Assembly (NCBI GenBank): GCA_977018835.1
Contig: OZ361260.1
Coordinates: 2,976,001-3,040,000, forward strand
Source of the DNA: Minutocellus sp. GHC0000111
Lineage: Eukaryota
Direction: 5' to 3'
Length of the DNA: 64,000 bases
The position numbers and the translations under genes are program-made. Shown one piece after another: positions 20,141 to 50,862 of the stretch (positions are counted from its first letter, which is position 1; each line of letters opens with the position of its first letter). The notes beneath the pieces were generated by a model. It was not told where the DNA came from. It was given only the letters and a program-made list of their open reading frames with translations, and did no database searches.

Positions 20141-20293
20141 ATTCGTGTATTTGGTCGGTAGAGCAGACCGGTTGAGCGATGGTTGGAATTCCTACTACGT
20201 AGTAATAGTATGGCGGAAACGCACTCGTCGGGTTGGTTGTGTGGATTGGTTGTCTGCGCTGGTCGATCTCGGATACAATGTGTGGATCGCCTA

Positions 20294-20480: not shown

Positions 20481-20764
20481 TATTGGTTCGGCCCTTCGAA
20501 GCAAGGCGCAAGCAAGGAAGCAAGCAGAGCCGCCACTCATCAGTCAATGCTGTACCACCGCGGTTAGATCTACTACGGTACATGTAGATCCAGATTTAAC
20601 CCATGGCCTTTCCATAGATCTAAATCCTAGATCTAGATCCTAGATCTAGAAGATCTAGATCTACTCCTATGAACATTTTTAATCTTTTATCCTATTGATA
20701 TATACACATGGTCGTGTCCAATGCCTGCTGCATGCATGTCCCATGACACTGCATTAGATCTACA

Positions 20765-20945
20765 CAGTCCGTCACCGTCAATAAGCATATTTGATATGCT
20801 TGTTTGAGAGACCTCAGATTTTCCGCATATTGCTTATTGTAAGATCCAATTCGCATTTCATTAGCATGAAAACCCTTGTTCCAAAATAAGCATGTTGAGA
20901 CCTCAGCTCCAGAATGGACATGCTTGTGTTGACGGTGACGGACTG
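20765..20945. mobile_element. Related, diverged MITE
   Basis: TIR cagtccgtcaccgtcaa / ttgacggtgacggactg. Shares internal catattgcttatt and ttccaaaataagc..ttgagacctc with copies 1-3. Both flanks are CA. Confidence 0.8.
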
Positions 20946-22599: not shown

Positions 22600-24099
22600 A
22601 TGTCCTCCAAGTGGCAGCAGCAGCCCAACCGGCACTACTGTGCCCTGTGCAACGTGTGGATGGCCAACGATCGCATCTCCATCGCCACGCACGAGAATGG
22701 TCGGAAGCACAAGGAAGCCGTCGAGAAGGATTTGCAATCGCGCCGGGCCGACAAGCTCGAGGAGGAGCGACGCCGGAAGGATATGGAGGACAGCCTCCGC
22801 GCCATTGAGGCTGCGGCTGGTAAGAAATTGGAGGAGGACTTGGGTGGTGGCGCCTTCGCCGGATACTCGTACTCGCATGCCGGAGGAGTGGCAGCTGTAG
22901 CGGCCGGGGCAACTGGCAGTTACCCGCCAAGTAATGCTGCGCAGGTTCTGGCACAACCCACAGCCGGACCGGGATCTATTCAGAGCAAGCAGCAGCCTGA
23001 TGCCTCCGCCAAGAAGGAAATGTCCAGCTGGAACGAGCGCAAGAACAAACGCAAGGCGGATGCGACCGATAGGAGGGGAGGCGAAGGTGCCAACGACGGT
23101 GACGATGCCAATGGTGGAGCTGCAGCGGCTGCGAAGAGGCGGAAGGTGCGCAAATTGGCAGCCGATGAGGGACACTACACTCTTGGGGAAAATGACGACA
23201 AACGGACGTATCTAGAGGGCAAGGTGTACTCTGCAATTCTCGAAGAAGAAATGCCAGTTCAGATCTGGATCGGGGACGATGATGCACCGACGTCCAGCAT
23301 GGAACTGGAGATGAAACGAGATGATCGGCAGCATCTATGAAAGATGGGACTTGTCGTGAGAGTTCGAAGGCTCAAGAAGCTGCAGCCAACAATCAAGGGA
23401 GGTTTCATTGAAGAGGGTGCGGAGTCACATCTGAAAGGAAATGATAATGAGGAAGAAATTGCGGTGGATGTTGCTTATCTTCGGAATTCAAACGACGAAG
23501 ATGAGACGATTGAAAAGGCAGTTCCGCCATATCGACTGCGTTTGCTGCTGGGATCCGACGAGATGATACCTGGTACCATCGAGGAGGCCCGATTGGATCT
23601 GATGGGTGGAGAGGAGATTATTGAAACACACGCCGACGATGGAACGGCCGGTGGTGCTGGAGCTGCTGCTGCACCCACCATCGATGAAAACACCGGTCTG
23701 GCAACATGGAGCACAACGACCGTCCGGAAGGTCAGCGCCAACCGCGAGGCCAAGGAGGAGAGGGCGCGGATTCGGGCCAAGAGGAGGGAGGAGGCCGAAA
23801 GGGCTCGACAGCAGGAGCGGGATCTCAATGAAAGGAAGATGGAAGAAGCAAAGGTGGCAAATGCCGACGATAGTGCCCTGGGGAGTTATGATGTTTGGAC
23901 AGGAGGAAAGGCCGGGTACAAGGGAGTGGACATTATGAAGAACGACAAGGTCGAAGTCTCCGATACTGTCAAGAGTTTGGCGAAGGGCAAGGGCACTGTT
24001 GCCTTCAAAAAAATTGGAAGTGGTTCATCGATGTTCAAAGTCAAGGCAAAAAAGAAGAAAAATAGAAGAGTTACAAGTGCCGACGATGATGACGACTAG
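22600..24099 (+). CDS. U1-type (matrin) zinc-finger protein, WBP4/FBP21-like; in-frame TGA at 23338-23340
   Basis: HYCALCNVWM...HENGRKHK finger. The ORFs on either side of the TGA are in the same frame. Confidence 0.7.
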
Positions 24100-27150: not shown

Positions 27151-27476
27151 CCTTGGGCCTTGCTTTGCTCTTGTTGTTTTGCAGTTTTTGTAGCTACCTA
27201 GGTACGTAGTTTTTGTGCGAGAGACAGGCGGAGAAGGCAGCCTCCGGGTTTCTGCTCTGTGCGTCAACCGGCGTCAACAACCGATGACACATCGAACACA
27301 GTGCCTCCCTCCGCTGATTCTCCCAACTCTATGCAACTTAGTAGAACATGAAATGCAGTTTAACTACGTGAACTGGAGCTGGCATTGGCGGTAAATGAAA
27401 CTTCTTAGAGGGTGAGGTCACTCTCCCCCTCCTCCTTTCCGTAGCACAGATCGGCCAACAATGTGTGTCGTCGTGC

Positions 27477-28793
27477 TTAGGTGAACAGCAGCAGAGGGCG
27501 CGAAGGGGGGCGGGCATTGGAGTCCCGAAGCCGGCATTTCGGCCAACACTGTTGATGCCGGCGAAGGATTGGCAGCAATTTGGGGTCCTTGGGTCTTCGC
27601 GATGGCTCGTCGAGTGTGCGTGGGGCACGTTGAAGAAGGAACCTCGTTGGATCATGCGTGTGGAGACTCCCGGATGTAAATTCTTGGACCTGGCGGCGAC
27701 GGATGCACTTGAGGAAGGCGTCACTGGACCACCGCCCTACCAGCATGATTGTGTACGTGGGAACATCATTTAGATACATTGCCATTGCTGCTCCGCTGCG
27801 AATGGAGTGTGATCCGAATTCAGAGGGATGGCAGCCCAGGACGTCCTCTCCAATCACTGTGGCCGACGACGCTCTCTCGGATCTTGTCAACTGTTCGGGT
27901 GGCAGGAATGCATTTTAACACGCCGTTGACCACGAAGGCATTTACCGGCGTATCGTTGTTGGTACTAGGGCACCCTAGGACTCGTTTCACCAGGGCAGCC
28001 CAAGCTTGAACTGGCTGGGCAGAGGGTGGCGTCGTGGGTGCAGTGTTGCGTAATCGTGTGACGTCACGCTCGTCGTTCTTCTGGAACTCAAAGGTGACGG
28101 AGACAGAGTCTGCTGAGAGGAGGGACCGGTCGTTGTGACACATGCGCCGTCGGCCGCGGTAGAACTGGATGTTGCGGAGGCGGAGCAGCTTGGTCCTGCG
28201 CTCACCGCTGACTCTGGAGTGTTCGCAAGACCTCATCGCGAAGAAAAGAAGGCGCCGACGGCTAGTTGCCCGACTGCACGGTCCTCTTCCGTTTCCCTGA
28301 CGGAGGCGATCTCTCGGAGGAGCCGGCAGGTGATCGCCTTCTCCGGCCGCTCGGCCGGGTCGGACTGGCTGTGTCCTCGGCGGAACTGCCGCTGTAGAAG
28401 AAGGAATGAAGGCTGGCCGATGTCGTCTTTCCCTGGGTCCCTGCGCTGGTTGTGCCGGAAGGACGAGCATGCACATGAGACGGTGTCTCGGACTGTCGAC
28501 GCAGCCAGTCGCGAAAACTTTGGCCCCGAAAAGCTGGCCTGTCGGACGGCGTGGGCAAAGGCGCCGAGAATGACTGTTCGGTCTCGGGGTGACACCTTGT
28601 CGAGGAAGACGTCGTCCCCGGTCCCGATGAGCTGCAGGAGCTCAGTCCAGCGGCTCCACGCGAGAGCGTGCTTCTCGGCAGTGGCCGTTGTAACTGCTTC
28701 CTGACGGGCAGCGTCCGCGCCTGCGAGACAATCCAGGAAGTAATCTCGTTGGGTAGTGGTGCAATCATCCTGAAATTTGAGGGAAGCTGACAT
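27477..28793 (-). pseudogene. Tyrosine recombinase of the retroelement; catalytic Tyr mutated to Cys
   Basis: FFAMRSCEH, FQKND, HSIRSGAAMAM and GRWSSDAFLKCIR motifs; several frameshifts. Confidence 0.85.
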
Positions 28794-30828
28794 TCGGGAG
28801 ATGATGGAAGCAACTTCGTGAGGTCAGCATCAGAGAGGTCGGTGTGTCACGAGAAAGAGAATCGGCCTCCGGATTGTGCTTCCCCTGGAACCACTGTGAG
28901 CACAGCATGGTGTTGGTCTCGATGAGCATGTCGGCTAGTTTCCGCGCCGTGGCCAGCTTGACCGCTACGTCGGCATCCTTCTCGCCGTGAGACACAAAGT
29001 TCGACTTCCTGAGCCATCCCTCGGCCGTGGTGCTGTCGGTCCCCGACAGCACGCAGGAGAGGGTTGGCAGGTTGCCCTCGATGTGGTCGATCCATGGGCC
29101 GATGACGGCGGCGAGGAACTCCAGGTAATTGAGGGTGAACCGGCCCCACAGCTCCTCGGGGAGGGCAAATCTCCACGCTCTGCCGGATGAGGACCATCCG
29201 CCGATGCCGTGCTCGGAGGCGTCACTTGTGCACTCGTGGGTGGGGCAACGGTGCGTGAGGAGGTTCATGCTCATGCCATCGGCGGCCCTTCGGAGGAAGC
29301 GGAGCCACAGGTTGAGGTCTTCTGCATCCTCAGAGTCGAACCGTTGGCGGCCGTGGCGGCGGGCCTTCCAGAGCCGATCCCGAAGGCGGCTGAGGAAGTG
29401 TCGTGCGGCTGGAATGATGTGTCCGACGTGGTTTAGCCTTCCGACCAAGGTGTCCAGCTCTGATCTGGTGGCGCCGCGGGCTCTGAGGAGCCGAAGCATA
29501 TCATCGCGCCAGGCCAGGTGCTTGCTCCAAGGGAGCCTCAGTAGGAGCCGCCGGGTGTCAGCATCCCACCCCAAGAGACACAGCACTTCGGAAGGCGCCC
29601 CCTCGGCGAGCAGCTTCTTGATGGAGGCAAGGTCATCTCTGGGCAGTGGCTCGCTGTCGGACACCGGTCGGCCAAGCGCGTGGATGGCGAGGAGGGTGGC
29701 AGCGGATGTCCGATCCTTGTTGTCGCCCAGGTCAGGGGCTGCGGCGATGAGGTCATCGATGTGCGGCTCGACCATGCCATCCTTGTTGTCGGGAAGGGTT
29801 GCGATCATGTCCAGGGCCGGCGCAAACGGCACATCGTCGCCCTCCACCTTGGGGCGACCCAAGTGCTTCTGCTGGGGGCTGTGGAGCTCTGACGGGTCCC
29901 AGTCCAAGCATTGCAGGAGGGCCCTGGCCAGGTCGGCAAGGGCGGCCGCCGAAAGTCAGAGCAGGAGGGACATGAGGGCAATGCCATCCAGGGTGGTGAT
30001 CGTTTTGACGGCCGTGCTGGGAGCCAAGTGGGCCCGGCGACACGCAGCCTTGAAATCGACCTTCTGCAGGAGGATGGGAGCACGGGGATGCTTGTGACAG
30101 GCGTCTGCGATGTAGTGGATCACTCGCCGGAGGGCATGGCCGAACACCACTGGCTGGTGGTCCTCCATGCGTGCTCTGTTGTTGACGGACCGTGCGGCAC
30201 CGATCTCGAAGGATTGGTCGTGAGTCAGGCGGTCCTTGGGCATGATCTCGCCAGCCTCGCTGATCGTGTTCTGTACCACCAAACCCATCGGAGCCACCTC
30301 CGCTCCAGGAATGAGGGGCGCGACCTTTGCTGGCAGAGGGAGGGCGAAACCGCGGGTCACGTCGTCGAGAACTTGGTCCTTGAGCACCTCCGGCCTATCC
30401 CTGGCCGATTTGTGGTTGCCTCGGCCGATGTTCTTTATCACGCTGTCCAGTCTGCTTTCGTCGCTCACCGGATCGAGGGCCCAGTCGGATCCACCGTCGA
30501 GAATGGAGCGGAAGCGGGGCCACAGCGGGTGCCGGCCAAGAATCGGCTCCAGAAGACTCAGGTCTCTGAACTCCGATCCCGGTTGGAGTGGCGACCCGCC
30601 CTGCGCCTCGAGTGCCCTGCTCAGAGAACGATCGTATTTCTTGAGGACCGACCAATTGTGAGCGGCGGCCTCCGTCAAGAGCTCAAATCTGAACTCCGTG
30701 GGCTTCGGTGTGGCCGACGGGGACTCGACTGCTCGTCGGACGTGCTGCACCAAGGTGGAAACATCGAAGATGGGCTCTAGTTCCCACGTGGAATTGCACA
30801 AGGCGAGAAAAAGGTGAGACATGTGCAT
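28765..30828 (-). pseudogene. Reverse transcriptase / RNase H of the YR retroelement
   Basis: KDRLTHDQS, KVDFKAACRR, LTFGG, HIDD (YxDD position), LGW, SDAS..GIGG, NYLEFLA, TDSTTA and N.EADSLSR motifs. Confidence 0.85.
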
Positions 30829-31414
30829 GCTGCACGTTCACGAGCATGCGGGTCTGTCCGACCGTGGTGGGCCCATTGTGGTCGCTGGGCTGCCCCGTTT
30901 GTTGTAGGTGTTTCTTCACCTGTTGGTCTCACTTACCATTTTGGCGTGTCGGTTCTGCTTCCTTGCTGTGCGTAGGGGAACCAGGGGGAGACTGTGCTTC
31001 GGGTTGGGGCTGCTTACCTAGGAGATCCTTCTCTCGCTGGCCTAGCCGGTCGAAGAGGTTGTCGGTGGCTTCCGCACCGCCAGCGTTAGTGGTGCTGGAG
31101 CCAGAGCCTGAGATGCTGTTGTCGGCGCAGGCATCACCGCTGGTGTTAGGGGGGCCAGGACCCGACCGAAGGTCACTGCTAACGCCTCGGCCTTCTGCTC
31201 CGGTGTTAGGGGCACCGGAGAGCCTGGATTGGTTGCTGATGTTGTTGCGACCGCACACGCCGGATTTTGGGGTGCCGGACAACCTTGGGCGGCTGGAGCC
31301 ACCGGGGCGGATCGACGCCGACGTGTCTGGCTGCACTCGACGGCGCTTGGAGGGACGAGATGTTTCTCCAGCATCCTCCGAGGGTGGGCCACGCCTCCGT
31401 GCCCACCCGATCCG

Positions 31415-33480
31415 TCATTCCTCCGTCTCCTCGTGCTTCCGATCGCATTTCTCGACGTGCTGCTCGACGGGTCCTCTCTCCGATGCCTTAAGAGGCCTCT
31501 TGACATGCGACTTCTTGAGCTTGCACGAGGATCCGGCGCCGCAGACACCTGTCAGGATGAGTGGAGGGCAGAATTTACAGCCATTAATTTCAGGTCTGTC
31601 CTCATAGGGCTCGGATTTCTTGCCATGCCGTTTTGCAAAGTTGCCGGGGTTGATGTCGAACGTGACGAAGTGTTCGTGCTGGTGGCCTCTGCCGCTGGCG
31701 CCGCCCGTCTTTTGCTTCTTTTTCGGACTGGTTCTTGGCTCTGATTTGTCGGAGTCGGAATCCGAGGAAGGGGTGGGAGCGTCGGCCGATTGGACGAGCT
31801 TGATGTGGCTGGGGTAGACGAAAGGATTCTGAGTCTTCATTGTCTTTTTGGACTCGTCGACCATTGAGAAGCAAGAGAGGTCGTTGCCGGCGTCGTCGGG
31901 GGAACGGAGACAAGCTTTCCAGAATGCATGGATGGAGGCGTCGACATTGTGGAACATCGCCAGCCAGAACTTCTCGCCATGGCTCTCGGCGATGTCGCGG
32001 CACTGGTCCTCGTGTGTCTTCATGTGACTGAGGACCCTGGCGACGTAGCGAGCGGGCTCGGAATCCTCTCCGGCAAGGAAGGAACTGCCAGCGCCGAAGG
32101 CCGAGATGTGACGTTTGGCACCGTCGCACTCGGTTGGGGACCGGTAGTTCTGCTTCAGAAGAGCCTTCACCTGAGTCGAGGTGCATCCTTTCTTTTGAGA
32201 GGCGGCGAGGTGCAGGGGCGCATTGCTGCTGCTGGAGTTTACCGGGCTAAAGGCGAAGACAGAGAAGCCATCGTAGATTTTCTTGTCGCTCTTCCCGAAG
32301 CCAAAGAGGCGGACGCAAGTGGTGAGGCCCTGGAGAGATGTCCTGACTCCGGTCTTGCCCTTTACATGCAGCTCGAGGCCGACGGCTGCTTGCGTGAGGT
32401 TTGACTCTTCCAGCAGTGCTTTCAATCCTTCGGGAAGATTCGAGTCGATCGCTGCTACATCATCGTCATGCTCGGTCGAGACCCGGCAGAAAGCGGCACA
32501 GGCCTTGAGGATGGCGCCATTCATCGAGTGCTTCTTGTCGACCTTGTCAGTGTAGGCCATGACTGCGCCGGTGAGGGAGGATGCTTCGGACGCGGCCCTA
32601 GTCATGGCGTTGGCCGCGGTAGTGACTGCAGAGTCGGTCGGGGCGCCACCGGCTGGTGGTCCGTCGCCACTGGCGCCAGTGATGTGCACCGAGCGTGCAT
32701 CTCACGTGCATCTCACGGGCGCATGTCTTGAGAGCCGGGTCCGTCGTTGGGTGCAAGCTGACGGCCGGGATGTCTCCTTGCTCGGACGTGGCGACGAACC
32801 ACAGCCACTTGACGACGTGTTGAATAGCCTCATTGGAGCGAAGACCTGCTGCGCCATGACCCTCGTCGTCACCGCTGTCTGATGCGTCGTCGCTGCCGGC
32901 GTCCTCATCCAGCCGACGTTTGAGGGCGGACAGGATGGCCCAAGGCGATGAATCGTGCTCTTCCAGAACATTCTGCAGAATCGAAGGTGGCAGCAGCACA
33001 AGGGACTTAAACTTCGTGGAGGCACTCCGGTGGCGGGTGTTGGAGCCTTCCTGGGTGAGACCGGTTAGGGCGGCTTCTGACGGTGCCCCCAGCATGGCTT
33101 CCACCGATGGGGCTAGGACCTCCTTGTGCCGCAAGAGGCTAGGTTGGGCCAACGACATTGCCGGGGCTACATCGTCGATCCGGAGGAGCCCACCCAACCT
33201 GAGGTCGGGCTGCATGGTGGTGCCTCCCTGAGCCACGGCATGGTGAATCACCACGACTTTCCCTTCTGGATGGTGGGCCAGCATGGACAAACCCTCGGCG
33301 TCGCGGATTTGCTGCTGGATCGCTCGGGCATGGCTCTGGACCATAGCGGCCGTGGGGTCGGTTTCACAGACGTTGTCGGCGAGGAATCTCTGGAAATCTC
33401 GAGCTACGGCGGCGTCGGCCCCGGCCGGCATCTCTTGTGCCAGTAGGACTGACTTCCAGGTGTTGAAAGATGAAGCCATG
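31415..33480 (-). pseudogene. Gag-like ORF region of the YR retroelement
   Basis: Long same-strand ORFs upstream of RT ending in a C-x7-C-x5-C-x5-H finger (CPPLILTGVCGAGSSCKLKKSH); frameshift near 32700. Confidence 0.55.
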
Positions 33481-35434
33481 GTGATCAATGCTCGATCACC
33501 TTGCTGTCGCCTTCGGCGTCGGTCCTCTCGGCGCTGGATGTGGTTCAGATCGGCCGTGAGGGTGAGGATGCGGTCGGCAATGTCGGGCTCTCCAAAGGCG
33601 GATAGAAGGATGTTGAATGCCTGACGCGGTGGCTCTGATGCCAAAACATCGGCGGTGACATCTCGCAGGCGGATGGGTGTCTCGAGATCGTCGGGGCGCC
33701 GGTGAATTGATGCTCTTTTGGCCAGACGCGGCAGTGGGCACCCTCCCAGCGATTTGGATCGGCCGTATCGTCTAGCCACCTCGGATAGACTCGATGGTAG
33801 GTGCCTACCCAGCGGTGTGAGGGGGACGCCGTTCGGTCTGCCAGCCTTCCCCAGCATTCGCACGGGTTGACCTCCACTCGGTGTCCAAGAGGATTGCTGT
33901 CAGGCCGAGTGTGTCGGAGTCGAGCGCTGGTGAGGCTCTCGAATCCACTGTCCCAGTTGATATTAGCTTCAGTGAGTTGGTCCGGTCGTAGGCACTGCCG
34001 TCTCTGGAACGGGTGCGGCGAATCCAGCGGGAACTGGGTGATCAGGGCGAAAGGGCCGATGAGATCTCCTCGCTCCAATGCCACACTGACGCCAGTCCGC
34101 TCGGTTCGGTCGTGTGCGTCACGTGGGTAGAAGAGTGGCCTTGCCTCCCACTCGAAATAAGTGAGCGGCAGCGTTGGTGGAAGCTCGCTCCCCCGTGAAC
34201 CCATGCAAGCGTGCGGTGTCGGCTCTAGAGGTCTGCCCTCTCTGGCCGCGATGCGCCGTCTTTCTTTTCGGTCGGCCTGGTAGTGGAGGATGCACTGCGT
34301 GAGCCGGCAGAGCTGGGGCCAGATGCAATGGTGTTGCCGCGCTGCTGCTACCGATGCCTCCGGACACCTTCGCCCCCGACACTGTTGAACCACGACGCCT
34401 CCGTCTGCCCGTGGTAGTCGGCACAGTGCACTGCTCAGGTCCAACTCAGTTGCCGTCTCGTGTGCCCGGCGGATCTCAGGCTCGGTAAGGCGCGTGGCTA
34501 TCAGCCAGATGTTGACGAGGTGCGTGGGCCAGTCCGGTGACACCAAGAAGGCTTGTTGCTCGAGGCACTCGGCGACCAGACCGTGCGCTGCTGGAGTAAG
34601 GTGTGAAACGGCTGCTGCTGGGGATGGCTGGTGCCCCGTGGCTCTCGATGGGGGGGAGGTAGCCTGTGGCGCGCTCGACGAGATCGGTGAGGTGCTCGGG
34701 GTAACGTCGATTCGGCCCTCGGCAAAACTTTTCCACCAATCCAGTGCGTCTGTGGTCAGTCTCTCGGACGACGCCCTGGCTGTGAAGAAACTTCTGCGCC
34801 CGGGCCGAATCTGACGTCTTAGTCTGTCCCAGCCTCGTGGAAGGTCAGGAGAGTCTCCTCGGACGATGAGGTGTCTCTTGCCACTCCGAACAACACGTGA
34901 TCCAGTTCCGGTCGATCTGGTTCGGCCATGCACTGTTCTGCCGTCGTAGAGACTGGAATCGGATCTACGTGCACTATCAACGGAGCTGAGCCGTGGCCGT
35001 TTGACTCCGGAGTCGACTGCGGTCTCTGGCTGGTGGACTAACAGCAGTGTGGTGTGGTGTGTCGGCCGGCCAATAATTACGAACTCGTAGAGTAGCACCA
35101 ACCTAATGCTAAAACTAACTAACTACTGAGAGAGAGAGACAGGCTCTGGGAGCCGGTACTGTAAGCTGACTTAGCAATTGCAACGGCAGCAATCGCAGAT
35201 GGTTGTGGCTTGGTCAGTTGAGACGAGAGGAGGCGAAGGTGGTGGTCAGCAGAAAAACTGGGCACTACAGGAATGCAGTTTTAGTGCCTGCTGCTAACCA
35301 CCGTCGCCAGCTCATCCCCACCGTGCGGTACCCACAAATCAGCACCGCCGAGCCTCGCTACTAAGTACGTAGCTCGGCTCGGCCGCGAGTTCCACGAGTT
35401 CATTCATCGGCATCAATCAACCCGCTGCCCAACG

Positions 35435-37059
35435 ATGGCATCCACCATTGGTACAATCCATCGGCCGCGACGACGACATTTCTCTGGTCTAATCCTCTTG
35501 GCAGTTGTGCTTTTGGTCTCCCTCTCCTCATCTCCCGCTGAGGCAATCGAGGCCAAATGGACTCCTGCCGAGGATGCCAACGAGGGAGGAGGTCCACTGC
35601 CTCTCTCGCAAAACCAGCGCGATCAACTCTTCCAGCTGGAGGAGGCCATCGTGACAAGTCCTGATCCGCAGGGTACCCTGATGAAGATTGCCGAAAGCAA
35701 CAATATGAGTCCAAGGGAACTGGTTGACCTCCTTGAGCGCAACCGGATTGACGGCGAGGCGGCTGGGACGGCACCACCGAGACCTGGAGGAGGAGGCGGC
35801 GGTGGCGGAGGAGGAATGGCGGCAGTCCAAAACACGCTGCCGAGGAAAATTCTGGGCGTGTTCTTTAGTGTATTCTCTACGCTGGGCAAGGTTGCCAAGT
35901 CGCATCCCCAAGCGTTTTCGGTCGCATTCACGGCCCTGTTACTGGCCATGTATTGCACGATCCAAGCGCCACGCACTGGAATCGTCATGTCAACTGGGCC
36001 CAACCCCTTGCTCCTGTCGTCGGGCCATACCACCTTCTTTGTACCACCGGCGGCATATCTTGCTCGGTACATGGAATCCAACAAATTCATCACTGCCGAA
36101 TCTAGCGTATCAAGGAAGCTGCTCCCCGCAGGTGGGAAGGCAGGCTCACTCACCAAGGTTCTGGAGGACGAGTTGGAAACTCGGGCAATGTTGGACGGGA
36201 GTGCACTTGTCAACCCTCTGGGCGCAAATCGGCCTTCAGCCTCGCCGTTACGGCCCAAAAGACGTTGAAGATTGAAAAAATACTTCCTGATGGATGGGAG
36301 GCGAAAGTAGACTCCACAGAATCAGCAGACGATGACAATGACAATGACGAAAACAACGGTGGAGAGAATCAACTTGATCAGAGGGCAATATTCATCCAGA
36401 ACGCGGCTGATACGGTGTTGGAGGCTGCCACGGCAGTTCTATCTGCAAAGCGATTCACGGAATTTGCTGGCACCGACGATGGGAAAGCCGAGGCAGTGAG
36501 GTTCCAGCCGTCGCCGATCGGCGGCCGGAAATCTGGCGGCACTTTAGTCGTCAAGTCCATGGGCGATTTCAACCGATTCGGCCTGCAGCCTCTGCGCGTT
36601 GTGCGCCAGGAGGAGAGCGAAGATGCAGCCAGTGTGATCTTTTCCACTCTACAGGGGGGTCACTTTGATGGAGAGATACAGTTCGCCGTACAGATGAAAG
36701 ATGGAGAGGATGACAATGACATTCCATCAGTCGCAATCACGGCCAACCTGGTGGTCCCGAGGAAGGGCCGCAAACTGGGGAAGAAGTATGCTGAACGGAT
36801 TGTTACAACAGTCGTAGAGTCCATGGCTGCCTCCATTGCAACTCAGGCTAAACAAAGTATGGTAAGACGGAATATGAGCAGCCAATACCGAGGACGGGTA
36901 TCGGCCGGTGCAACGGAGAGAAGACAAATTCGATTCGAGAACGAGCGCAAGATGGAAGAGATGGCCGAGGACAGAAGGCGGAGGTGGCAAAGGAGCAATC
37001 CAGACGCTGGCCGATACAGGCCGTCTGGAGATAGGATGCGTTCTCCAAACAATTGCTAA
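35435..37059 (+). CDS. Hypothetical signal-peptide/TM protein; frameshift at about 36170-36220
   Basis: Two consecutive ORFs with continuous coding character and no obvious intron between them. Confidence 0.55.
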
Positions 37060-37584
37060 AAAAGTAAAATGGCCAGGGATTTAGAGTAAATTGTTGATAC
37101 CATGGGATACGTACGTACGTATACATACGTACGGTACGTACGGTGATCAGACCACTGACTCAGTGCCCTCTCCTGACCGTTGATCCATGGGCCAACGACA
37201 TCTCCGATGGCCCATTTTTCATCTACGTAGGTACTATTAACCTCTACTAGCTATATCTATCAAGCTTAGCTTTAGGACCTCTTAGCAGACCTACGTGATG
37301 CATCTTTTCCACCCGTGCTCGCCCCATTTCGGTTCGCACCTCACCGGTTTGTCTTGGGTTCTCACTCGTCACGCAAGAAAAACCGACACATCTTCAATCG
37401 ATCGGCCAAAACGACCGTTTCTTTCGACAATATTGGAACGACGATCCAATCCCTTCCCCGAAAGTCCTGACCAGATCGACCCATCCAATCGATGATCACA
37501 CTTCTCTGGATCGAACCTTCTGTCGATCACACGTCTCGCAGCAACACCGCCGTGCTGCCTGTCTTCGCTGACTGAAACACCAGC

Positions 37585-38872
37585 ATGAATCCCGACGCAG
37601 TTTTTGGCCAACCTCTCGGCGCAGCGCCGATTCTCCCCACCAAGTTAATCACACGTATGAATGACCCAGGACAACCTCCCCAACGCGAGCGTGTTGCCAA
37701 AGCGCTCAAGGAACTTCAACAAGCGGCGGCCAGCATTCCAGCAGGGTGCAATGACCGACCATGGTGAACTCGGCCACTTGGGCCTCGTCGTCAGCGATGC
37801 CGAACACACCACCAAAAGTAACGGCCGACCACATGTGCCTCCGGCAAATCCTGGCCCCAGCCCCACCATTCCCGCCGTGGCCAATCTAGACCAACGCGAT
37901 CGTGCAATCCGGGGACATTGCATCGAAAAGGGCCACTACAACTTGTACGAGCAAGTCAACACGGCGCTCAAGAATCTCCTCCTCGACTCGATCGACGCCG
38001 TCTACATCAATCATCTCGAAGATGACATGCTCGGTTTCCAGCCAGTCACCATCCGCCAAATCATCGACAGCATTACCGATCGCTACTTGAAATTCAACGA
38101 GACTCAGAAGGAGGAATTAGAGAAGCAGCTCGAGAAGCAGCACGACGGGGGACCCATCGACACCCACATCGCCATGTTCAACAAAGTCTTCAAGGCGTTT
38201 GAAACGGCCGGCGAACCCTTCACCAACAAGCAAAAGGTCTCCAAGTTCTACCGCTCCGTGCGCAGGTTCTCATTGGCAAAGAAGGCATGCGAAGACTGGG
38301 ACGACAGACCGGAGGCCGAACGCACGTGGGCCAACATGCAGTCGGACTTCCGCGATTGGCATGATAAGAAGATGGCCAATACCACCACCGAAGCGGCAGG
38401 ATATCATGGCGCGAATTTGGCCTCATCGGCCTCGGACGATCCATTTCTTTCTCGAGCCGATCTCCTTTTGGCTGATACCACCGAAGCCCTCAAGACCAAC
38501 CAAGCCATGATGGCGAACCTCGCCAAAAAGAGCAACGAGAAGGATGACACCATGGCCAAACTTCGCCAAGAAATAGCTTCACTCAAGGCCGAGAACCGCG
38601 TTCTGCGTGAGGGACGCAACCATACTGGTGGCAGTGGAGGCTACCGCGGCGGTGGCCAGCAGAACGGCGCCGGCCACTTCCCAGGCCAAGGTCCTAACCT
38701 CAACCGCCAGGAGAAGCGGGAACTGCAGTCGATCCTCCCCAGAGGCCATTATTGCCACACGTGCGGCTATTCGTCCAACCACCCCAGCTTTGAATGCACT
38801 TGCAAAGGGCCCAACCACGTTGATAACGCCACCAAGTACAATCCTTGCGGTGGCAGCTCGCGTCGTAACTGA
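37585..38872 (+). pseudogene. Copia gag
   Basis: GELGHLGLV, W..R...RTW.N....F and YCHTCG...H.S..C.....HVDNAT..N..GGS motifs; frameshift near the 5' end. Confidence 0.8.
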
Positions 38873-41800
38873 GCGGGAGGGACGGTGGATATTAATCAGT
38901 ATAAAATAGAGGATAGCACATCTGAATCCACCTCCTCCCCTCCTTCGTTAGCTTTTCTTACGTCAAAAAGCAAACCTCCAACTCAAGAGCCAATCGTCCT
39001 CGCAGCAGATACTGGAACGACGGGACATTTTGTCCAGAAGCCCCAACACCTATCGTGCGATGGCCCTATTTTCAACGTCCAACAGACAGCAATTCCTATC
39101 AGCGTCACCCTTCCGGATAATAGCACAATGACGAACACCCACGAGGCCACGCTTCGCTTCCCTGGGGTTTCCCCATCGGCTAGCAAGGCCTATATTTTCA
39201 ATAATATGGCATCATCGCTCCTATCGATTGGGCAGCTGTGTGACGATGGATGTATTGCCACTTTCGATAAGGATTCGGTAGTCATCGCCAAGGACAATAC
39301 CGTCATTTTGCAAGGTAAACGAGACCCCTCAACGAAATTGTGGATGGTAGATCTTAATTGCTCGCCCACCATGTCGCCGCTCCCCGGCCCCAACGTCATC
39401 CAACATGCTGCCAACGCCGCAATTGCCCAGGAGACGGTTCCGGAACGTGCAGCCTTTTTACATTGGTGCGCTGGCAGTCCTCAGCTATCTACCTGGTGCA
39501 AAGCAATCGATGCGGGATTTTATAGATCTTGGCAAGGCCTCACATCAAAGCTTGTACGTAAGCACATGCCACAGTCGATACCGATGATTAAAGGTCACTT
39601 AGACCAGCAGCGCAAGAACATCAGGTCGACCAAGCCCAAACGGTCGATGGCTACGCCAAAATCTCTCCCTGGGGTGGACGAAACCGAGCAGGATCTCCAC
39701 CCGGCACAACACCAACAGCGCACCAACTATGTCTTTGCTGATTGTCATGACATAACGGGCCAGATCTTCTCAGATCAGCCCGGCCGTTTCTTGGTATCGT
39801 CTATTTCTGGCCACCAGTGCATAATGGTCGTCTATGACTATGACTCCAACAGCATCTTGGCCGAACCAATGAAAAGCCGATCGGGAACGGAAATGCGCCG
39901 AGCGTACCAAACTATTTTCGAATACCTCTCCAAGCGAGGATTTCGCCCAAAATTGCAACGATTGGATAATGAAGTGAGTCGAGAGCTGAAGGAGTTCATG
40001 GAAGAAAAGGATGTAGATTTTCAATTGACCCCAACGCACTCCCACCGCCGAAATGCGGCCGAACGAGCCATTCGAACCTTTAAGAATCATTTCATTGCGA
40101 TTCTCTGTGGTGCCGATCCCGACTTTCCCCTCATCTTGTGGGATAAATTGCTGGAGCAGGCGGTAATGACCCTCAATTTCCTGAGAGCATCCCGAGTCAA
40201 CCCTCGACTATCAGCGTACGAGCAACTCAATGGCGGCTTTGATTTCAATCGCACGCCTCTCGGCCCCCTCGGATGCAAGGTCATCTTTCACGAGATGCCC
40301 TCGGCACGCGGCTCTTGGTCCCCGCATGGCGTTGATGGGTACTATGTCGGTCCAGCCATGGAACACTACCGGTGTTACAAGGTTTGGATTGAGGAAACTC
40401 GGGCGGAACGCACTGGTAACACACTCGTCTGGCTCCCCAAAATGATTCCGGTACCCAAAACGTCGTCGGCCGATGCAGCAATAGTCGCAGCTCATGAACT
40501 AAGGGTAGAGTCGTTGCATTTGACAAGAAGTATAAGTACTACAAAATCAAATACGAGGACGACGACGTAGAAGAGATGAACGAGACTGAAGTAGGCCGAC
40601 ACCTTGTCTCCAACCCCAACGCTCCGTTACCTCAGCCCCAGCAACCTCCGAGGGTGGCAAAATCCTCCACATGTGATGCAGCCACCACTAAAAGCCGTCG
40701 ATCACGTCGATCCAACGCGCCACCTCGCTCGTCAGTTTCTTCCAACTACTACAATCCTTTGGCTGCAGTAGACGAGCCCAACGGCGACGATGATGATAAT
40801 CATGACGACGATGCAACCGTCGCAACATCCAATCAAAGTTCCAATGCCCCCACCTCCCGTCGGCAACGTAAACGCAAGTCTCCAACGATCGATACCACTC
40901 CAACATTGCCAGCTCCAGCAAAATCGACAAGCAAGTCCAAACCATCGACCGCCAAACCACCTCGACGACGATCATACCGTCAGCGAGGGTACATTCCACA
41001 TCGGAACCCTCCCCCACGGCCATCATCTCGTCGTAGTACCCACCACGTGGCCAACATGGCAGCTTTCTCGCCTTTACCAAACCTCCAACACTTTGCTAAC
41101 GCCGTCGTCCATCCCGATGCTGGTGCAATGCTTGAATGCCGCGACCTCCTCAAAACGAACATGAGGGACCAATTCATTCAAGCAAACATCGATGAAATTG
41201 GACGGCTAACGGACGGCCGAGTTGGAAACAGTGCTAGCATTCCCTCCAATACAATGGCTTTCGTCCACTGGTCCGAACTGCCTCGGGGGAAAAAGCCACA
41301 TACCTCCGCATTGTCGCCGACTATCGCTCCCATAAACCAAATCCCAATCGAGTTCGATGGACTGCAGGAGGCGACAAAATTCATTACCCTGGTACAGTCT
41401 CGACCCCGACCGCTGAAATGTTGACTGCAAAGTTACTTTTCAACAGCGTCATCTCTACAGACAACGCTCGTTTCATGGGAATTGATGTCAGTGACTTCTA
41501 TCTCAATAGCACCATGCCAGAGCCAGAATGGATGTGGGCGCCAGTAGCTCTCATCCCCGACGAAGTCATGGAAGCCTACGACCTCCACGACAAAGTAAAG
41601 AATGGTCGAGTATTGGTCAGAATCGATGGCGGAATGCATGGATTACCCCAGGCAGGGCGCCTAGCCTACGATCAACTTGTCAAGCATCTCAAACCCCATG
41701 GCTATTTCCCTTGCAAGCGTACTGCCGGCCTTTGGAGGCACAAAACCCGCCCAATTACCTTTTGCCTAACCGTTGACGATTTTGGAGTAAAGTATGTCGG

Positions 41801-42813
41801 GAAAGAGCATGCAGACCATCTCATTCAGGCCCTCAACTCCAAGTACAAGATCACTACCGATTGGGAAGGCCGACTTTATTGTGGTATTCAACTCGAGTGG
41901 AACTACGAGGCCAAATGGGTGGATCTATCTATGCCTAACTACGTCAAGGAGATGCGCCACAAGTTCCAACACGACCGCCCCTCACGGCCCGAGCATGCAC
42001 CATATCGATGGAATCGTCCGACGTATGGCCCGGGACCCCAGATGCCAGAACCGGAAGACGACTCACCACCACTCGACGCCAAAGGCATCAACGAAATTCA
42101 ACAGGTGGTGGGCAGCTCCTTGTGCTATGGTCGAGCAATTGATTCAACAATTTTACCGGCGCTCAACACAGCATCTCAGCGGAACAATCCAAAGCTACCG
42201 AGCGCACTCGACAAGATGCCAAGAAGCTTCTAGATTACCTTGCAACCCATCCCGACGCAGTCATTCGATGCGTCAAGTCAGACATGATCCTACATGTACA
42301 TAGCGACGCCTCCTACTTATCAGCCCCGAAATCAAGAAGCAAGCTCGGAGGGTGCTTCTACCTAAGCTCCCGACCTAAGGACCCGCACCGCCAGCCTGAC
42401 TCAAGTGATCCCATGCCACCAATGAATGGAGCCATCCTCGTCAATGCCAACATCATCAAGCATGCAATGCCCTCAGCCGCTGAAGCCGAATTGGGAGGAT
42501 TATTTTTCAACACATGAAAGATGCAGTGCCAATCCGGGCAGCACTAGAAGAAATGGGTCACCCGCAGCCCCCTACTGCTATCGTCGTTGACAACTCTACA
42601 GCATCTGGAATCGCCAATGAAACCGTCAAGCAAAGACGGTCTAAGGCTATGGACATGAGATACTGCTGGGTCCAAGATCGCATAGAGCAACGACAATTCC
42701 AGGTGCACTGGCGGAAAGGAGCGCAAAATTTGGCCGATTATTTTACAAAGCACCATCCCGCCCGCTACCATGTCGACATGCGACCAGTCTACTTACATGT
42801 AGATTCCAATTAG
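38873..42813 (+). pseudogene. Copia pol (protease, integrase, Tudor-like domain, RT, RNase H) with a deletion and frameshifts
   Basis: ADTGTTGHF; SDQPGRF, RLDNE, RRNAAERAIRTFKNHF; GMHGLPQAG, LTVDDFGVKY; HSDASYL, AAEAELG, VDNSTA, NLADYFTKHH. Confidence 0.9.
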
Positions 42814-43089
42814 GACTCTACATGTAGATTCAATGGCACTAGTCATTGATCTGCGAGGGTGTGTTGATGCCGTGGGATGCGTACGTACGTATACATACGT
42901 ACGGTACGTACGGTGATCAGACCACTGACTCAGTGCCCTCTCCTGACCGTTGATCCATGGGCCAACGACATCTCCGATGGCCCATTTTTCATCTACGTAG
43001 GTACTATTAACCTCTACTAGCTATATCTATCTAGCTTAGCTTAGCTTTAGGACCTCTTAGCAGACCTACGTGATGCATCTTTTCCACAC

Positions 43090-43635
43090 GTGCCAGTCCG
43101 GTGACACACACACCAAGAAGGCTTGTTGCTCGATCGAGGTGCTCGGCGACCAGACCGTGCGCTACTGGAGTAAGGTGTGAAACGGCTGCTGCTGGGGGGA
43201 TGGCTGGTACCCCGTGGCTCTCGATGGGAGGCAGCCTGTGGCGCGCTCGACGAGATCGGTGAGGCACTCGGCAACGTCGATTCGGCCCTCGGCAAAACTT
43301 TTCCACCAATCCAGTGCGTCTGTGGTCAGTCTCTCGGACGACGCCCTGGCTGTGAAGAAACTTCTGCGCCCGGGCCGAATCTGACGTCTGAGTCTGTCCC
43401 AGCCTCGTGGAAGGTCAGGAGAGTCTCCTCGGACGATGAGGTCTCTTGCCACTCCGAACAACACGTGATCCAGTTCCGGTCGATCTGGTTTTCGGCCATG
43501 CACTGTTCTGCCGTCGTGGAGACTGGTGTCGGATCTACGTGCACTATCAACGGAGCTGAGCCGTGGCCGTTTGACTCCGGAGTCGACTGCGGTCTCTGGA
43601 CTAACAGCAGTGGTGGTGGTGTGTCGGCCGGCCAA
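43090..43635 (-). mobile_element. Second, 5'-only fragment of the YR retroelement abutting the copia 3' LTR
   Basis: About 545 bp colinear and highly similar to 34524-35074. Confidence 0.9.
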
Positions 43636-44827
43636 TCAACAATCGTGCCTGAGGGGGGAATTCAACCCCGCATCGTCGAGGAATTTCAACCTCGCATCTC
43701 AAAAAAAGAAAAAAAGAACTCGGGGCGCCATTTTGGCTGGCCATTTTGGCCGACACAGGCAGGACCGGGTCGGCCTCCTCGTCCTGGCGGGGAGGAAGCC
43801 GCGGCTGGGCCAGAGCTTCGGGGGGTGCCGCTCCCACGGCAGTGGTAGCAGCGGTCGATCGGATGTGGACATTTGCTCCACATGCACCACACACAACCAA
43901 GAAGATTTTGAATGTTTTTTTTTCCGTCAATGTGAAGCCTTAAGCACATTGCAGAACAGTCCACACCCCCAATAAGGACATGTTGATTCTAGCTAGAGCT
44001 GAGGCAGAGCAGATGGCTTTTTAAGACACTGATCAATTTAAGATGCTGCATGTTGTCAGGGCCCTCTCCCATAGTGACTACTAGTAACAAGTAATAGGGA
44101 CATTGGTTGCTATGAATAGGGGCATTGATGTCTTGTTAGCGGCATTACTAGCAGCATCTTAATTTGCCACTCATCGATGATGGCGGCAGATTTGAGCTCC
44201 AAACAAAATCCCTGATGTCTCAGGGTAGGCATCGAATAATTTCACCGGACAATTTTTCCTAGAATCAGCATGTTCTCAGCTGTCCAAAGACGCACAGAAA
44301 GTGTTCACACTATTAACGGATCAAAAAATTAATTCAGATTTCAATCTGCAGCACATGTGTCTTAAGAGGGCGCTGTCCATAACTTTTAGGAAGCCCCCAA
44401 AATGCGTGTTTTGTGCCGTTTTTTCTTCGCACCATCGCCAAAGTTAGCACTCCAAGGTGACAATGGGCTCCTCATCGAAGGCCGCCGCTCTCCACAGTGG
44501 CGAAGAGTCATCGACGTTCCTTTCAGCATTAAGTCGGAAATCCCTCCAGGAACACTTGGTTCAGAGGAACTTCGATGAATCAACTCTCCCTCAGAAACAC
44601 AATGGTCGACGTGCACATCATCGTCGGATCGACCGAAATTAGTCTCGGCCGACGCATAACCAGCATTGGTGGTGCTGGTGGGAAGACATCTTGAAGTTTT
44701 TCTGTTGGGAGGTAAGGGGATATTTGTTTGGGGTATTTTTGCACGTCTCCCTCATTTGGGGTTCTTTTTGTAAGGTTCTCATCGAAAAGCGTGTCTTGCG
44801 CCAGAACCGACACAAAAAAAAACAACC

Positions 44828-47141
44828 ATGGAAACATCACGTGCTAACGCCAAGGAGGCAATCCTCTCACTCTTGCTCTCATTCCCAGACGACGTCAGAT
44901 GTACTTACTACACTATTGATGAGCTTGTCCGTATCTTGATGCGCGGTGGCGTGTCGCCGAGCTTAGAGATCTCTCTTGTTCGATCATCTCTTCAACACGT
45001 CCCAACACGACACGAGGTCAACATCCAACGACGACGTCCAGAGAAAATATCAGGCCTTGACGTTGCAAAGCCCTTCTACCGCTTCTCCAGAATAGCCGAT
45101 AACGCCAGCCCACGCTCTCAACGCAATGGCAAGCGATCACTGCCGACCATGCCTGAAAATTGCTTCCAGGACGATGAAAAGCATGGGCCCCATCTCAACG
45201 CGATGCTGAAATGTTATTCCGACAAGAACTCTTCGGGCGGTCGGTCATCTACTCCCACCGCCAACGCTACCGATCGTCCCAACATCACCGGCGTGCAGCT
45301 CAACGGCAAAAGAATTGTGGTTGAGATGAAGCAGCTGCATGATTTCGTACAGAATCTCCACCGATCGTGCGGCAATCTGTGTCTCTCGGCCGAGCCAGTT
45401 CGGCGTGGATTCGGCGTCACATTTGAATGGTTATGCGATAGACGCAACCAACCTTTTTCTTTTTGCACTTGGATCGGCCAGAGGTCAGAAGTTGTGTGCC
45501 CCGGCAGAAAGCATTCTAGAAGTCAGGCTGGAATGAACTTGGAGCTGATGGAGGCAGCGGAAGATGAGGCCATGTGCGCAAGTCGCTTCATGAATTTCTG
45601 CACGAAGGCCGACATCGTCCATCCGACCGAAAAGAATGCCCGACAGGTGGAAAAGAAATGCAGAGCAGCGGCTATTGAAGCAGCTGATGAAATCATTGAC
45701 GAGAACAGGGCAAAAGCATGTGCCGCTAGCAGCAAGACTGTTGAGTTTGAACAAGGCGGCGAGATGCACACGGCGGCGGTGGTTACGGTGGCCCAAGACG
45801 GCAGCGCCCTCAAACGCGACTACGGCCATTGCTACACTGGCTCTGCTGCAGCGGTATTTGCCGTAGACAAGGAAACTGGCCTTGTTGTTGACAAGGGAAT
45901 CTCTCAGGCAAGCTGCCACTATTGCGTGAGAGCCTGCAATGCAAGATTGAGGGAGAGGCGGGAAGCCGGCAATCCAATGACGCCGAGTGAGCTCAAAAAC
46001 ATGAGCAAGGATGAGACACTGGCCCTGTGCGACCATGATGGCTTCTGCTATCGCAACTCTTCCTACTCCCCCGGTGTGGCAGAGGAGCATCTGGCCGAGA
46101 ATGTTGGGAGTTGAAAATTTTAATGCCATCCCCCGACCACGCATCAATCGGATGAAACAGGACATTTCGAAGATTGCTGATCGGTACAAGCACAGCGTTC
46201 TCGATCAGCCCGATGGTGCTGTGTCCGAGGAGGAAAAACAAAGTCATTTGGCCCTCCTTCAGAAAGAACTCCAGTCCGTCGTTCGTCACCAATGTGGCAT
46301 TCACACTTTTTGCACCACCAACACGTGTGATTGGATTCGCCTCAGCATTGCTCATCCTGATTGGAGTGATGGCAAGCTCGATGAGGAATGGAGCTCGGGG
46401 AATCAATTCGATGGCGACATATTGGAGATTAGTGACGACACGATTCGCAAGATGACGCTTGAAATAACCAAGAGAATCAACAAGAATACTGCCTTTTCCA
46501 ACTGCAAGAAGGAATCTACCACCGGCGTCGAACAGCTCAACGGGATGGTGACGAAGTTCACGATGGGGAAAAGGCCGAATTTGACTGCTTCAGACGCCTA
46601 CCCAAATGCAACAAGTAGAGCCGCTGGCCACAAGTCACTGGGTACGGAATTCAATGAGCGAGTTCTTGGAAAGTTGGGATCGAGGGATTCTCCTACCCGA
46701 AAAGATGGATTCGATGCAATTGACCGGAAGCTCGAGGGCGACCTTGCGCGTAAGCGCACCGATGAGTACAAAAAGAGCAAGAGCGACAGCAAGCGCCTTC
46801 GAGCAGCCTTGCGAAACAGAAGCGAGAAAGACGACAAGGACTATGTGTACAAGAAGAACAGGGCCCTAGCTGCTGGTAAGGCGAAACCAGCAAAGCCTGG
46901 CCGCAAGAAGAAGATTGACCAGCAGTGTCAGAAATGCAAGCAGCTTGGCCACACTCGGGCTGAATGTCAATGCGACGATGCTGACGACGTTGTCGTTTAC
47001 GCCGGAAAGAAGCGCAGAAGCCCAGGCAGCAACAAGAAATCTGCAAGAAATAATAAGAAAGCTAAGACAAACTTCGGTGTATCGGCAAATGATGTTAGCT
47101 CTTGGATGCCGGCGATACTGAGAGAAAATGGCAGCTTGTAA
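44828..47141 (+). pseudogene. Kolobok DDE transposase, broken near 46110
   Basis: VAQDGSALKRDYGH, VDKETGLVVD...CHYC, H...C.RN, STTGVEQLN and C-terminal CQKCKQLGHTRAEC. The second-Asp region appears to be missing. Confidence 0.7.
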
Positions 47142-49131: not shown

Positions 49132-50862
49132 ATGTCCGGCCCTTCGGTAACAGGAAGCACAAGGTCGCTGCTGTCGGATTGGGCCAAATCGGTACCAAGA
49201 TCAATGGGAGGATCAATATACAGAGGCGCCGCAGATAGTCGGGCGTCGCTATTCTCACATTGGCCGTTTACCGCCCTTTCATCTTCAAAGGATCCCGCCG
49301 ATGTGTTTGCAAGTGCAACGTTACCGGCATCGGCACGGATACGGAACCTCGCACCACCGCTAATTGATGCGTTGCAATATGAGCTGCTGCCGCTAATATT
49401 GTGCGAGGTTGGTTTTGCCTTCACCACGGCATTTGCCGCTTATGAAGTGTGGGTCACCCGACGGCACAGCCGGCGACACTTGACGAATGGAAATCGGAGA
49501 AATACAAGCACCGTCGTTCCTCGGCTACCATTGATGAACAACACATCCGGCACCGGTGCTGGAGGACGCGGATCACTTCCGACCAGTATGATGACTGGGA
49601 CATTGCAGCAGCCGAAGCGATCGTCACATTTGTATGGTGACTTTCGTCGAGGTAGCGTTGACACACACGATGGCAGACAGAGTTCCGGCTCGTTGGAGGC
49701 AGCTGAAGCAGGTAGCCGAGGTGGGAGGGGATCTGTCATGTCCTCTGCTATCGGACGGGACGGCGCCGGCGGATAATCTGCAGCGGAAAGTAAGGACGGT
49801 CAAAGTTCTGGCGACTCGACCCGAAGAGCATTCTTTAACCTTCTCTTCATCGCCCTGATGTCGCGTCTCCTACTGCTTCCCGTTCAAGCGTTTTACTTTT
49901 CCCCTTCCTCGCATGATATTCATCCCGACAGCGGGATGTGCATGTCTTTGCCAGCCTGCATCTTTTCTCGGACACTGCCAGACATGTGTTTTGCCTCAGC
50001 ATTTTGTTTACTAGTGTTGTTCTATGCCCAGCTGGCGGGGACGGCTTCTGGCGGTGGGCCGCAAGGGCTGTCCTACATACTTACTCGTCGTCGGCTTTTT
50101 CAGACGGCAAACATCATCGTTTATGCCATCTACACGTTCCTCTTCATATTCACTGCATTCGTTCCACATGTTCCATACGCATTATTCCAGACTTGTATAT
50201 GGTCAATGCTCTGTTTTTTCTATGCAGCTCTACTTGGAACCTTGTCGTACTTTGGCCCTCAATTACTGAAGCTGCTAAGGCCAAGTTTGGCGCGACGGTC
50301 TGCGTTGGCCATGCGCCTGAGCACCACGTGCATTGTCTGTGCTGCAGTCTTTCTATCACGGACAGTATGCTTCGCGATTGCCGTATATGATACTGACTAC
50401 AAATGGACACATGGCATTGTCGCAAACTCGATTCCTTCCCATGCCTATCAAAGACAATTTGACCAAAACTTACTCGGCTGCACAATGCTTGAGTTGCTTC
50501 CGTCGGTAATAATACTCGCCATGATGCACCAAAGAGCCCCGAGGAGTGGATCGAGCCAAAGTCCTAGTGCTGCGGCTGGAACCACTCCACCTGTTGGCAT
50601 GAGCTACGGACCGCCCCGTTCGGCTGCGCAAATTGCTGCTTTCGCGACTGATGGAAATGCCCCTTCACCAGGCAGGCTAAGCCCTGGGCAAAGTGGCAGC
50701 GGTGGTCTGGAACGGTCCAGCTCAGACAGAAGGAGTTTGCGAAGGAGTCTTTCAGGCTCGGCAGCTCCTAGCGGCAAGAAAGGATTGGGAGCAGAAGGAG
50801 CCCCGCTTTTGGATGGCCGATCAAGAGGATACGGCGCTGCCCCTGGTACTTCTGGACCATGA
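49132..50862 (+). CDS. THH1/TOM1/TOM3-like membrane protein; in-frame TAA at 49774-49776
   Basis: TLPDMCFASAFCLLVLFYAQL and ELLPS resemble TOM1 motifs. The frame continues through the TAA into ORF 49858. Confidence 0.6.

Follow-up and report, generated by a model that had tools for sequence, protein, structure and literature searches.

The window analysed here, a stretch of 64,000 nucleotides (nt) of contig OZ361260.1, carries a decayed tyrosine-recombinase (YR) retrotransposon and an element of the Ty1/copia type. An earlier note on this DNA, based on a comparison by eye of two copies of a segment of the YR element, had proposed that a defence against repeats changes the dinucleotide TpA into TpG or CpA. 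We find that this TpA-to-TpG/CpA hypermutation is real, polarised and associated with retroelements. It affects both retrotransposon families, copia and YR, on both strands, and its direction is the reverse of that of fungal repeat-induced point mutation (RIP). The relevant features, with R standing for a purine and Y for a pyrimidine in sequence motifs, are the following.

27500..35358 (left end approximate), minus strand: decayed YR retrotransposon, from open reading frames (ORFs), homologs and composition, with the right end taken from contigs
about 27660-28823, minus strand: tyrosine recombinase of the YR element, from its HSIR...GRW motif and homologs
27705..27707, minus strand: TGC (Cys) codon at the predicted catalytic Tyr column of the recombinase, in an RTAY-type context, from 147 homologs
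28765-30837, minus strand: reverse transcriptase (RT)/RNase H of the YR element, from homologs, with a distant match to P0095
31415-33899, minus strand: gag-like ORF of the YR element, from ORFs and homologs
34528..35074, minus strand: copy A of the shared YR leader segment, upstream of the first YR ORF, from alignment
37092..37313, plus strand: left long terminal repeat (LTR) of the Ty1/copia element, with TA kept at 37098 and 37108
37320..42860, plus strand: interior of the copia element, with gag, integrase and RT, converted in part
42862..43088, plus strand: right LTR, with TA>TG at 42869 and 42879, CA/CG at 42872 and a 5-nt duplication at 43032
43092..43636, minus strand: copy B, a 545-bp fragment of the YR leader abutting the right copia LTR, from alignment

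The two leader copies share 92% identity over 561 columns, and alignment recovers at the same positions all nine substitutions that had been read by eye. They comprise two reciprocal swaps (CA/TG at 34566/43140 and TG/CA at 34693/43265), TG/TA differences at 34589/43163 and 34632/43208, a TA/TG difference at 34947/43517, TA/CA differences at 34660/43232 and 34702/43272, and two sites bearing a transversion (TA/GA at 34820/43390 and AA/TG at 34957/43527). With the two swaps excluded, all five transitions are of the TA/TG or TA/CA type, which is possible by chance at 93 of 551 positions (P ~1.4e-4). The earlier remark that the pair shows no CG-versus-TG/CA difference also holds, as none of the 48 CpG of copy A differs. 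The earlier listing was, however, incomplete: nine short indels had been missed, eight of them clean tandem duplications of 2-7 nt and one a complex indel at 35050. The segment had further been taken for the 5′ end of the YR element. Its location in the 5′ leader stands, but it is probably not the end of the element, since single-copy contigs on the right side of the element start only at 35359.

The copia element offers a second pair. The two LTRs of a copia element are identical at insertion; here they differ by two TA>TG changes, one CA/CG difference and one 5-nt duplication. Because two LTRs of one insertion differ, the TA>TG changes likely arose after insertion. Both LTRs are very rich in TA (observed/expected 1.53) and contain many GTAC.

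For polarity and rates, the window ORFs were compared with distant homologs and with near-identical sibling proteins (ENA records, mostly megabase contigs). Codons were scored in high-identity, gap-free stretches, where only events that change an amino acid are visible, and rates were compared among siblings of transposable elements (TEs), with the copia internal region as the TA-rich reference. In the YR RT/RNase H, a Tyr conserved in the outgroup is lost in the window at four of four columns (C, C, H and W), and the YR siblings divide between His and Cys at three of these. In copia, columns 59, 62, 178, 316, 345, 351 and 490 each hold Tyr, Cys and His, with Arg in none. TAY yields TGY (Cys) or CAY (His), whereas a CG ancestor would yield Arg, and these sequence comparisons therefore indicate that TA is the ancestral state. 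A contig of run X3 reads TA at the reciprocal site 43265-43266 (C>T at 43265, 43266 unchanged), a site with TG in copy A and CA in copy B, and contigs of runs X2 and X3 read TA at 43272. The direction that the earlier note had assumed, from an ancestral TA, is thus borne out by outgroup, siblings and contig; the check in reads that it had proposed for all nine sites gives alleles for two (43265/43266 and 43272), both reading TA.

The spectrum of change is narrow. Among minority changes in copia (34 siblings supplied, strands pooled), TA>TG occurs at 87 of 1075 copy-sites, compared with 14/6920 for other A>G, 7/1792 for CG>CA, 3/1088 for TA>TT and 1/1208 for TA>TC. Changes at TA are hence 87 A>G, 3 A>T and 1 A>C, with TA>TG about 40-fold over other A>G. 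Counted by site (30 siblings supplied), 37 of 73 TA sites are changed, against 5/133 AA, 3/147 CA, 3/165 GA and 6/115 CG; TA differs from AA, CA and GA taken together (11/445) with a Fisher p of 2e-26. CpG decay is present family-wide at a low level (24/4328 copy-sites in YR, beside the copia count above), about 20-fold under the TA rate, and this qualifies the absence of CpG differences in the leader pair; three fixed CA-versus-CG rows are seen in contigs (29824, 32002 and 33579). In run X2, transitions account for 193 of 212 change places, and among the 40 rows listed 25 are of the TA type or TG/CA swaps, 3 are CG/CA and 12 are neither.

The base 3′ to the TA matters as well. By site, copia shows change at TAC 18/22, TAT 12/18, TAA 4/18 and TAG 3/15, or TAY 30/40 versus TAR 7/33 (p 6e-6), and the few sites of the YR family point the same way (TAC 37/84, TAT 28/59, TAA 1/32 and TAG 6/108 copy-sites). 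Both strands are affected in copia (64/543 and 27/363), with both strand types present in 11 of the 18 copies that carry two or more changes, as expected from the proposal of A-to-G change on both strands in a TpA context. The load per copy is overdispersed, ranging from 0 to 26 of 68 sites (0 to 38%; chi2 100, df 29), and is not correlated with other divergence (rho 0.03 over 31 copies). The three A>G differences between the LTRs are all confined to the right one, within its first 18 nt. Lying within 11 nt, they had suggested clustering and strand coordination; both were dropped as features of the process, as family-wide there is no clustering (P 0.98) and no significant coordination of strands (P 0.08).

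Composition gives a complementary picture of which DNA is affected, within this one window and with gene limits set by eye from ORFs. The TA observed/expected ratio, 0.31 in the YR element (27500-35074), stands at 0.58 for the copia interior, 0.54 for genes and 0.69 for the remaining DNA. RTAY and YTAR are counted 18/54 times in YR (same interval), 84/52 times in copia, 568/172 times in genes and 406/304 times in the remaining DNA. Of the 396 residues of the YR RT/RNase H a single one is Tyr, whereas the median for 71 homologs is 1.9%. The comparison of TEs with genes and other DNA that the earlier note had proposed thus shows depletion in the YR element. Two further elements in the window bear on what is targeted:

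14041-16784: DDE-like transposase relic (assigned by eye)
44774-47141: Mutator-like transposase (Pfam PF20700, E 7e-10)

Targeting of repeats, as the earlier note framed it, survives as an apparent confinement to retroelements within the window. Homology sensing in the sense of RIP is not supported, given that the DDE-like relic is gene-like in TA and that the hypermutated viral region of Bigelowiella natans, discussed below, is single-copy.

The process may have reached the active site of the element itself. The YR recombinase carries the motif HSIR...GRWSSDAFLKCIR, and 1023 relatives share the HSIR...GRW motif. At the column of 27705..27707, 133 of 147 relatives have Tyr, 10 have Cys and 1 has His. 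From its position after GRW and from weak Phage_integrase matches (6 of 8 recombinase relatives, all below the cut-off), this Tyr is predicted to be catalytic, and hypermutation has turned the predicted catalytic Tyr of the window recombinase into Cys. RNA-library contigs have TG or CA where the window keeps TA (30275, 32825 and 33344), which suggests that alleles, once converted, are inherited within the YR family. About 25 of 150 distant YR relatives have Cys or His at Tyr columns; as CpG-type decay is seen at other columns there, this is no sign of a wider taxonomic spread.

On balance we lean towards a host enzyme, predicted to deaminate DNA adenine to inosine, as the cause of the A-to-G changes at TpA, mostly at TAC and TAT, on both strands of retrotransposons after insertion. 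The pure A>G spectrum, the trinucleotide target and the lack of both an AA component and clustering fit an enzyme acting on single adenines. Such an enzyme would deaminate adenine to inosine at TpA in inserted copies, and the inosine would pair with C at replication, fixing TG after an event on the top strand or CA after one on the bottom strand. Since either change removes the TA on both strands, one event per site would be expected, which would account both for TG/CA pairs that are reciprocal and for the lack of CG. RTAY, a target on both strands, would vanish first. The products would be missense changes and not stops (Tyr>Cys/His, Val>Ala and Ile>Met/Thr/Val). Targeting may depend on the state of the locus, such as silenced or foreign chromatin, perhaps with small RNA, and may be episodic; because spreading families inherit TA loss, the older YR family would be near saturation. 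Of the two chemistries that the earlier note had offered, an adenine deaminase is thus the best fit, and an error-prone pathway fares worse for Pol eta.

Several observations weigh against this reading. Two of the nine leader sites carry a transversion at TA (34820 and 34957), the LTRs retain most of their 24 TA, with only 2 differing, and 12 of the 40 listed read rows are neither TA- nor CG-type, which indicates that ordinary background change is present. The DDE-like relic resembles genes (RTAY/YTAR 56/18) and the Mutator-like ORF region has 26/18, neither being clearly depleted, and two of five gene rows in contigs are TA/TG (36887 and 37016, near the LTR). The siblings share descent and possibly the assembly of the window, and the rates rest on their amino-acid changes. 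Among the window ORFs, inspected by eye, no enzyme gene that could underlie the signature was recognised and no deaminase was seen, as the earlier note had also found. Finally, the natural DNA adenine deaminase of amphioxus, ADAT2, prefers GAA and not TAY in the accessible text of its description (PMC10354150), and the accessible part of PMC10661471 held nothing on the sequence context of TadA.

The best of the alternatives, though an unlikely one, is a targeted process acting through an adenine mark or lesion at TAY, in which a methylated adenine is deaminated or miscodes, or the base is excised and dCMP is placed opposite the gap. Adenine-mark or lesion chemistry at TAY gives A>G, so that the same outcome and motif are expected, and the occasional A>T or A>C at TA (34820, 34957 and the three TA>TT in 1088) would fit bypass of an abasic site. 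However, TA transversions barely exceed background (0.28% versus 0.11%, and 0.08% versus 0.08%), and a precedent was not found in the literature examined.

Somewhat less likely again is error-prone repair synthesis in TE chromatin by a polymerase like Pol eta, which would produce the TA>TG changes and the short duplications together. The spectrum of Pol eta is less purely transitional than the 87:3:1 observed here, AA is not enriched (5/133 sites, with CA at 3/147 and GA at 3/165, versus 37/73 for TA), and changes are neither clustered nor significantly coordinated by strand. Duplications do lie beside TA changes in all pairs within the window, yet the excess of short tandems is located in non-TE noncoding DNA. 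A single process of this kind for both substitutions and duplications was dropped on these grounds. The accessible text on Pol eta describes WA hotspots, with TA a mutual hotspot of both strands (PMC7884765), and antibody hypermutation by this polymerase resembles the present signature in its A>G at TA on both strands; here AA is no hotspot and transversions are rare.

We regard as improbable that the changes arise during retrotransposition, through RNA editing or RT error, or reflect the removal of UA from TE transcripts by selection. It would suit such a stage that the two families concerned are retroelements, that the effect is less clear in DNA-transposon relics, and that RNA-library contigs carry TG or CA at window TA. 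Against it stand the differences between two LTRs of one insertion, the changes on both strands of single copies, the destruction of conserved Tyr residues and a TA/CA difference between the arms of one miniature inverted-repeat transposable element (MITE)-like element.

More improbable still is an artefact of base calling or assembly, for instance one caused by base modification in repeats. In its favour, ordinary genes of the window do show stops in frame and apparent losses of 1-2 nt, the sibling proteins and the window may stem from one assembly, and the read table covers only two of the nine sites. Nevertheless, alleles with TA, TG and CA are seen to segregate among contigs from four further runs (two of which are listed as Illumina), the load varies widely between copies, and the B. 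natans signature was Sanger-checked for a subset, according to the accessible text of the preprint (bioRxiv 10.64898/2026.01.13.699255). Ordinary C>T decay read backwards, whether RIP-like CA>TA or deamination of an ancestral CG, can be set aside almost entirely: low-level CpG decay is present, but the outgroup Tyr and the three-state columns without Arg refute it, TA is found at the reciprocal site in a contig, and the TEs are poor and not rich in TA.

The short tandem duplications appear to have another origin. Among the contig rows listed, 11 leave out bases of the window; in 10 of these the window has a perfect tandem duplication of 2-4 nt, in 7 cases without extra homology. The siblings have 15 private in-frame insertions, 12 of which repeat a neighbouring residue, versus 2 private deletions, and one window duplication is shown to be an insertion by 126 of 148 relatives. 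Non-TE noncoding DNA (~15 kb) has an excess of tandem 4-mers (100 versus 43 expected, z 10, microsatellites included), 5-mers (26 versus 12), 6-mers (18 versus 4) and 7-mers (9 versus 1), and the YR element has none (23 versus 28 expected). Because the excess sits in non-TE noncoding DNA and not in the YR element, the duplications are probably a separate, genome-wide bias. Together with the insertion bias in TEs, the noncoding excess suggests an unusually high rate of micro-duplication genome-wide. Staggered breaks repaired by end joining can yield tandem duplications, according to the accessible text of PMC5730883. For B. natans, our own arithmetic gives an indel rate of 7.9e-11 (21 events / 85.05 Mb / 3132 generations), leaving none for the hypermutable regions.

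The YR element has the feature set of the DIRS order, namely a gag-like ORF, RT, RNase H and a tyrosine recombinase, with RT/RNase H recognised only via the distant relative P0095, whose own RVT_1 and RT_RNaseH matches are below the cut-off. Pfam and NCBIfam gave no match above the cut-off for the YR-element ORFs, and sequence searches of the PDB with its proteins gave none. In contigs of run X10, position 35337 is followed by sequence that matches 27283-27304, as a circle junction or a split terminal repeat might produce; self-BLAST at E 1e-4 found no terminal repeat of the YR element, whether inverted termini or split direct repeats, the layout by which DIRS is told from Ngaro/VIPER. In the copia element, RVT_2 matches with E 2.5e-7. 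The element has no matching target-site duplication, with TAAAT on its left and YR leader directly on its right, and this suggests that two insertions have recombined or that a deletion has occurred. The depth of DNA-run contigs, which is not a copy number, is ~1500 for YR, 3100 for copia and 12.5 for the gene; as both lie far above the gene, both families are high-copy. Two metagenome scans for further DNA copies found none. RNA-library contig depth in run X7, not an expression measure, is ~370 for YR, 8-70 for copia and 5-9 for the gene, and hints that the YR family is transcribed.

Between the two TEs lies a single-copy gene (35432-37059) that is conserved in diatoms and has no assigned function, with a frameshift near 36215. 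The frameshift was considered as a 2-nt duplication, which was rejected because homologs show a 1-nt loss; relative to P0290-P0294 it is an apparent 1-nt loss, from a broken allele or an assembly error. The gene neighbouring the TEs has named relatives in Chaetoceros and Pseudo-nitzschia, and the window copia integrase in Phaeodactylum, Fragilaria, Mayamaea and Attheya, from which the host is likely a diatom (stramenopile). A DnaJ-domain gene, presumably Pam18-like, switches frame at its HPD motif (5125), and two other ORFs have in-frame stops at 23338-23340 and 49774-49776; loss-of-function alleles in a heterozygous state, introns or errors of assembly may be the cause. The MITE-like element has inverted arms of ~180 bp and further copies (12802-13512, 20291-20485 and 20763-20928). 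Its arms differ by TA/CA and an AAT duplication, and in one copy 9 nt are inserted between two TA.

The mutational genome defences known to us act on cytosine. RIP, like the process described here, makes dinucleotide-specific transitions on both strands of TE copies and inactivates them. The two run in opposite directions, as the earlier note had said: RIP changes C to T at CpA/TpG, and here TA becomes TG or CA, GC increases, and the outcome is missense and not nonsense. RIP is also premeiotic, and it depends on Rid1 as well as on how long and how similar the repeats are, in the accessible text of PMC12543289. The novelty that the earlier note had implied for the signature was too high. A 2026 preprint by Mettrop et al. 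(bioRxiv 10.64898/2026.01.13.699255) describes, in the parts accessible, TpA hypermutation arising de novo in integrated viral DNA of B. natans, where 230 of 231 new mutations in two viral regions, one hypermutated region being single-copy, were A:T>G:C at TpA, at ~1000-fold over baseline. There, TpA-poor coding sequences were enriched in RT and DDE domains, and a deaminase was proposed, with ADAT2 as an unproven candidate.

Insofar as that text allows comparison, the two signatures agree in that nearly all changes are A>G following T or T>C preceding A, on both strands. In B. natans the signature is confined to foreign DNA; here, in one window, RTAY loss is seen in YR and not in genes or the remaining DNA. 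By analogy the unevenness is also shared (11 of 15 lines there, overdispersed copies here). Unlike there, the targets here are retrotransposons of a stramenopile, of the LTR and YR kinds and high in copy number, the signature is seen by comparison of copies and not by mutation accumulation, and the TAY preference is measured; the preprint's main text holds no trinucleotide analysis and does not mention diatoms. Amphioxus ADAT2/3 is a natural tRNA deaminase able to deaminate DNA adenine, so the chemistry exists; in the accessible text (PMC10354150) it differs from the inferred TAY enzyme in preferring GAA (adenine), TCG (cytosine) and hairpin loops, and no TE targeting is seen. Literature searches, with most subscription papers outside their coverage, found no report of TpA hypermutation in diatoms. 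Among the literature found, an A-to-G defence is reported in one preprint, in a rhizarian alga, and is here extended to two diatom retrotransposon classes.

This analysis contributes the polarity from three-state columns, a TAY target that could help to find the enzyme, and the change of a predicted catalytic Tyr. The DDE-like relic and the Mutator-like transposase, lacking clear RTAY loss, are useful for judging what is targeted, and as diatoms are transformable, both enzyme and targeting become testable. A DNA adenine deaminase occurring in nature would be of interest for base-editor development. More tentatively, and with the odds somewhat against it, diatoms and chlorarachniophytes may share an ancient defence of the stramenopile-alveolate-Rhizaria (SAR) lineage: a dedicated DNA adenine deaminase, guided by chromatin or RNA to 5′-TAY-3′, that acts on transposons and viruses residing in the double-stranded DNA of chromosomes. 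If true, this would be for A:T what RIP and APOBEC are for cytosine, an adenine base editor of natural origin, and retroelement families would survive by shedding TAY even at conserved tyrosines. The hypermutation would explain GC-rich, tyrosine-poor TEs, and would bias LTR-based estimates of their age.

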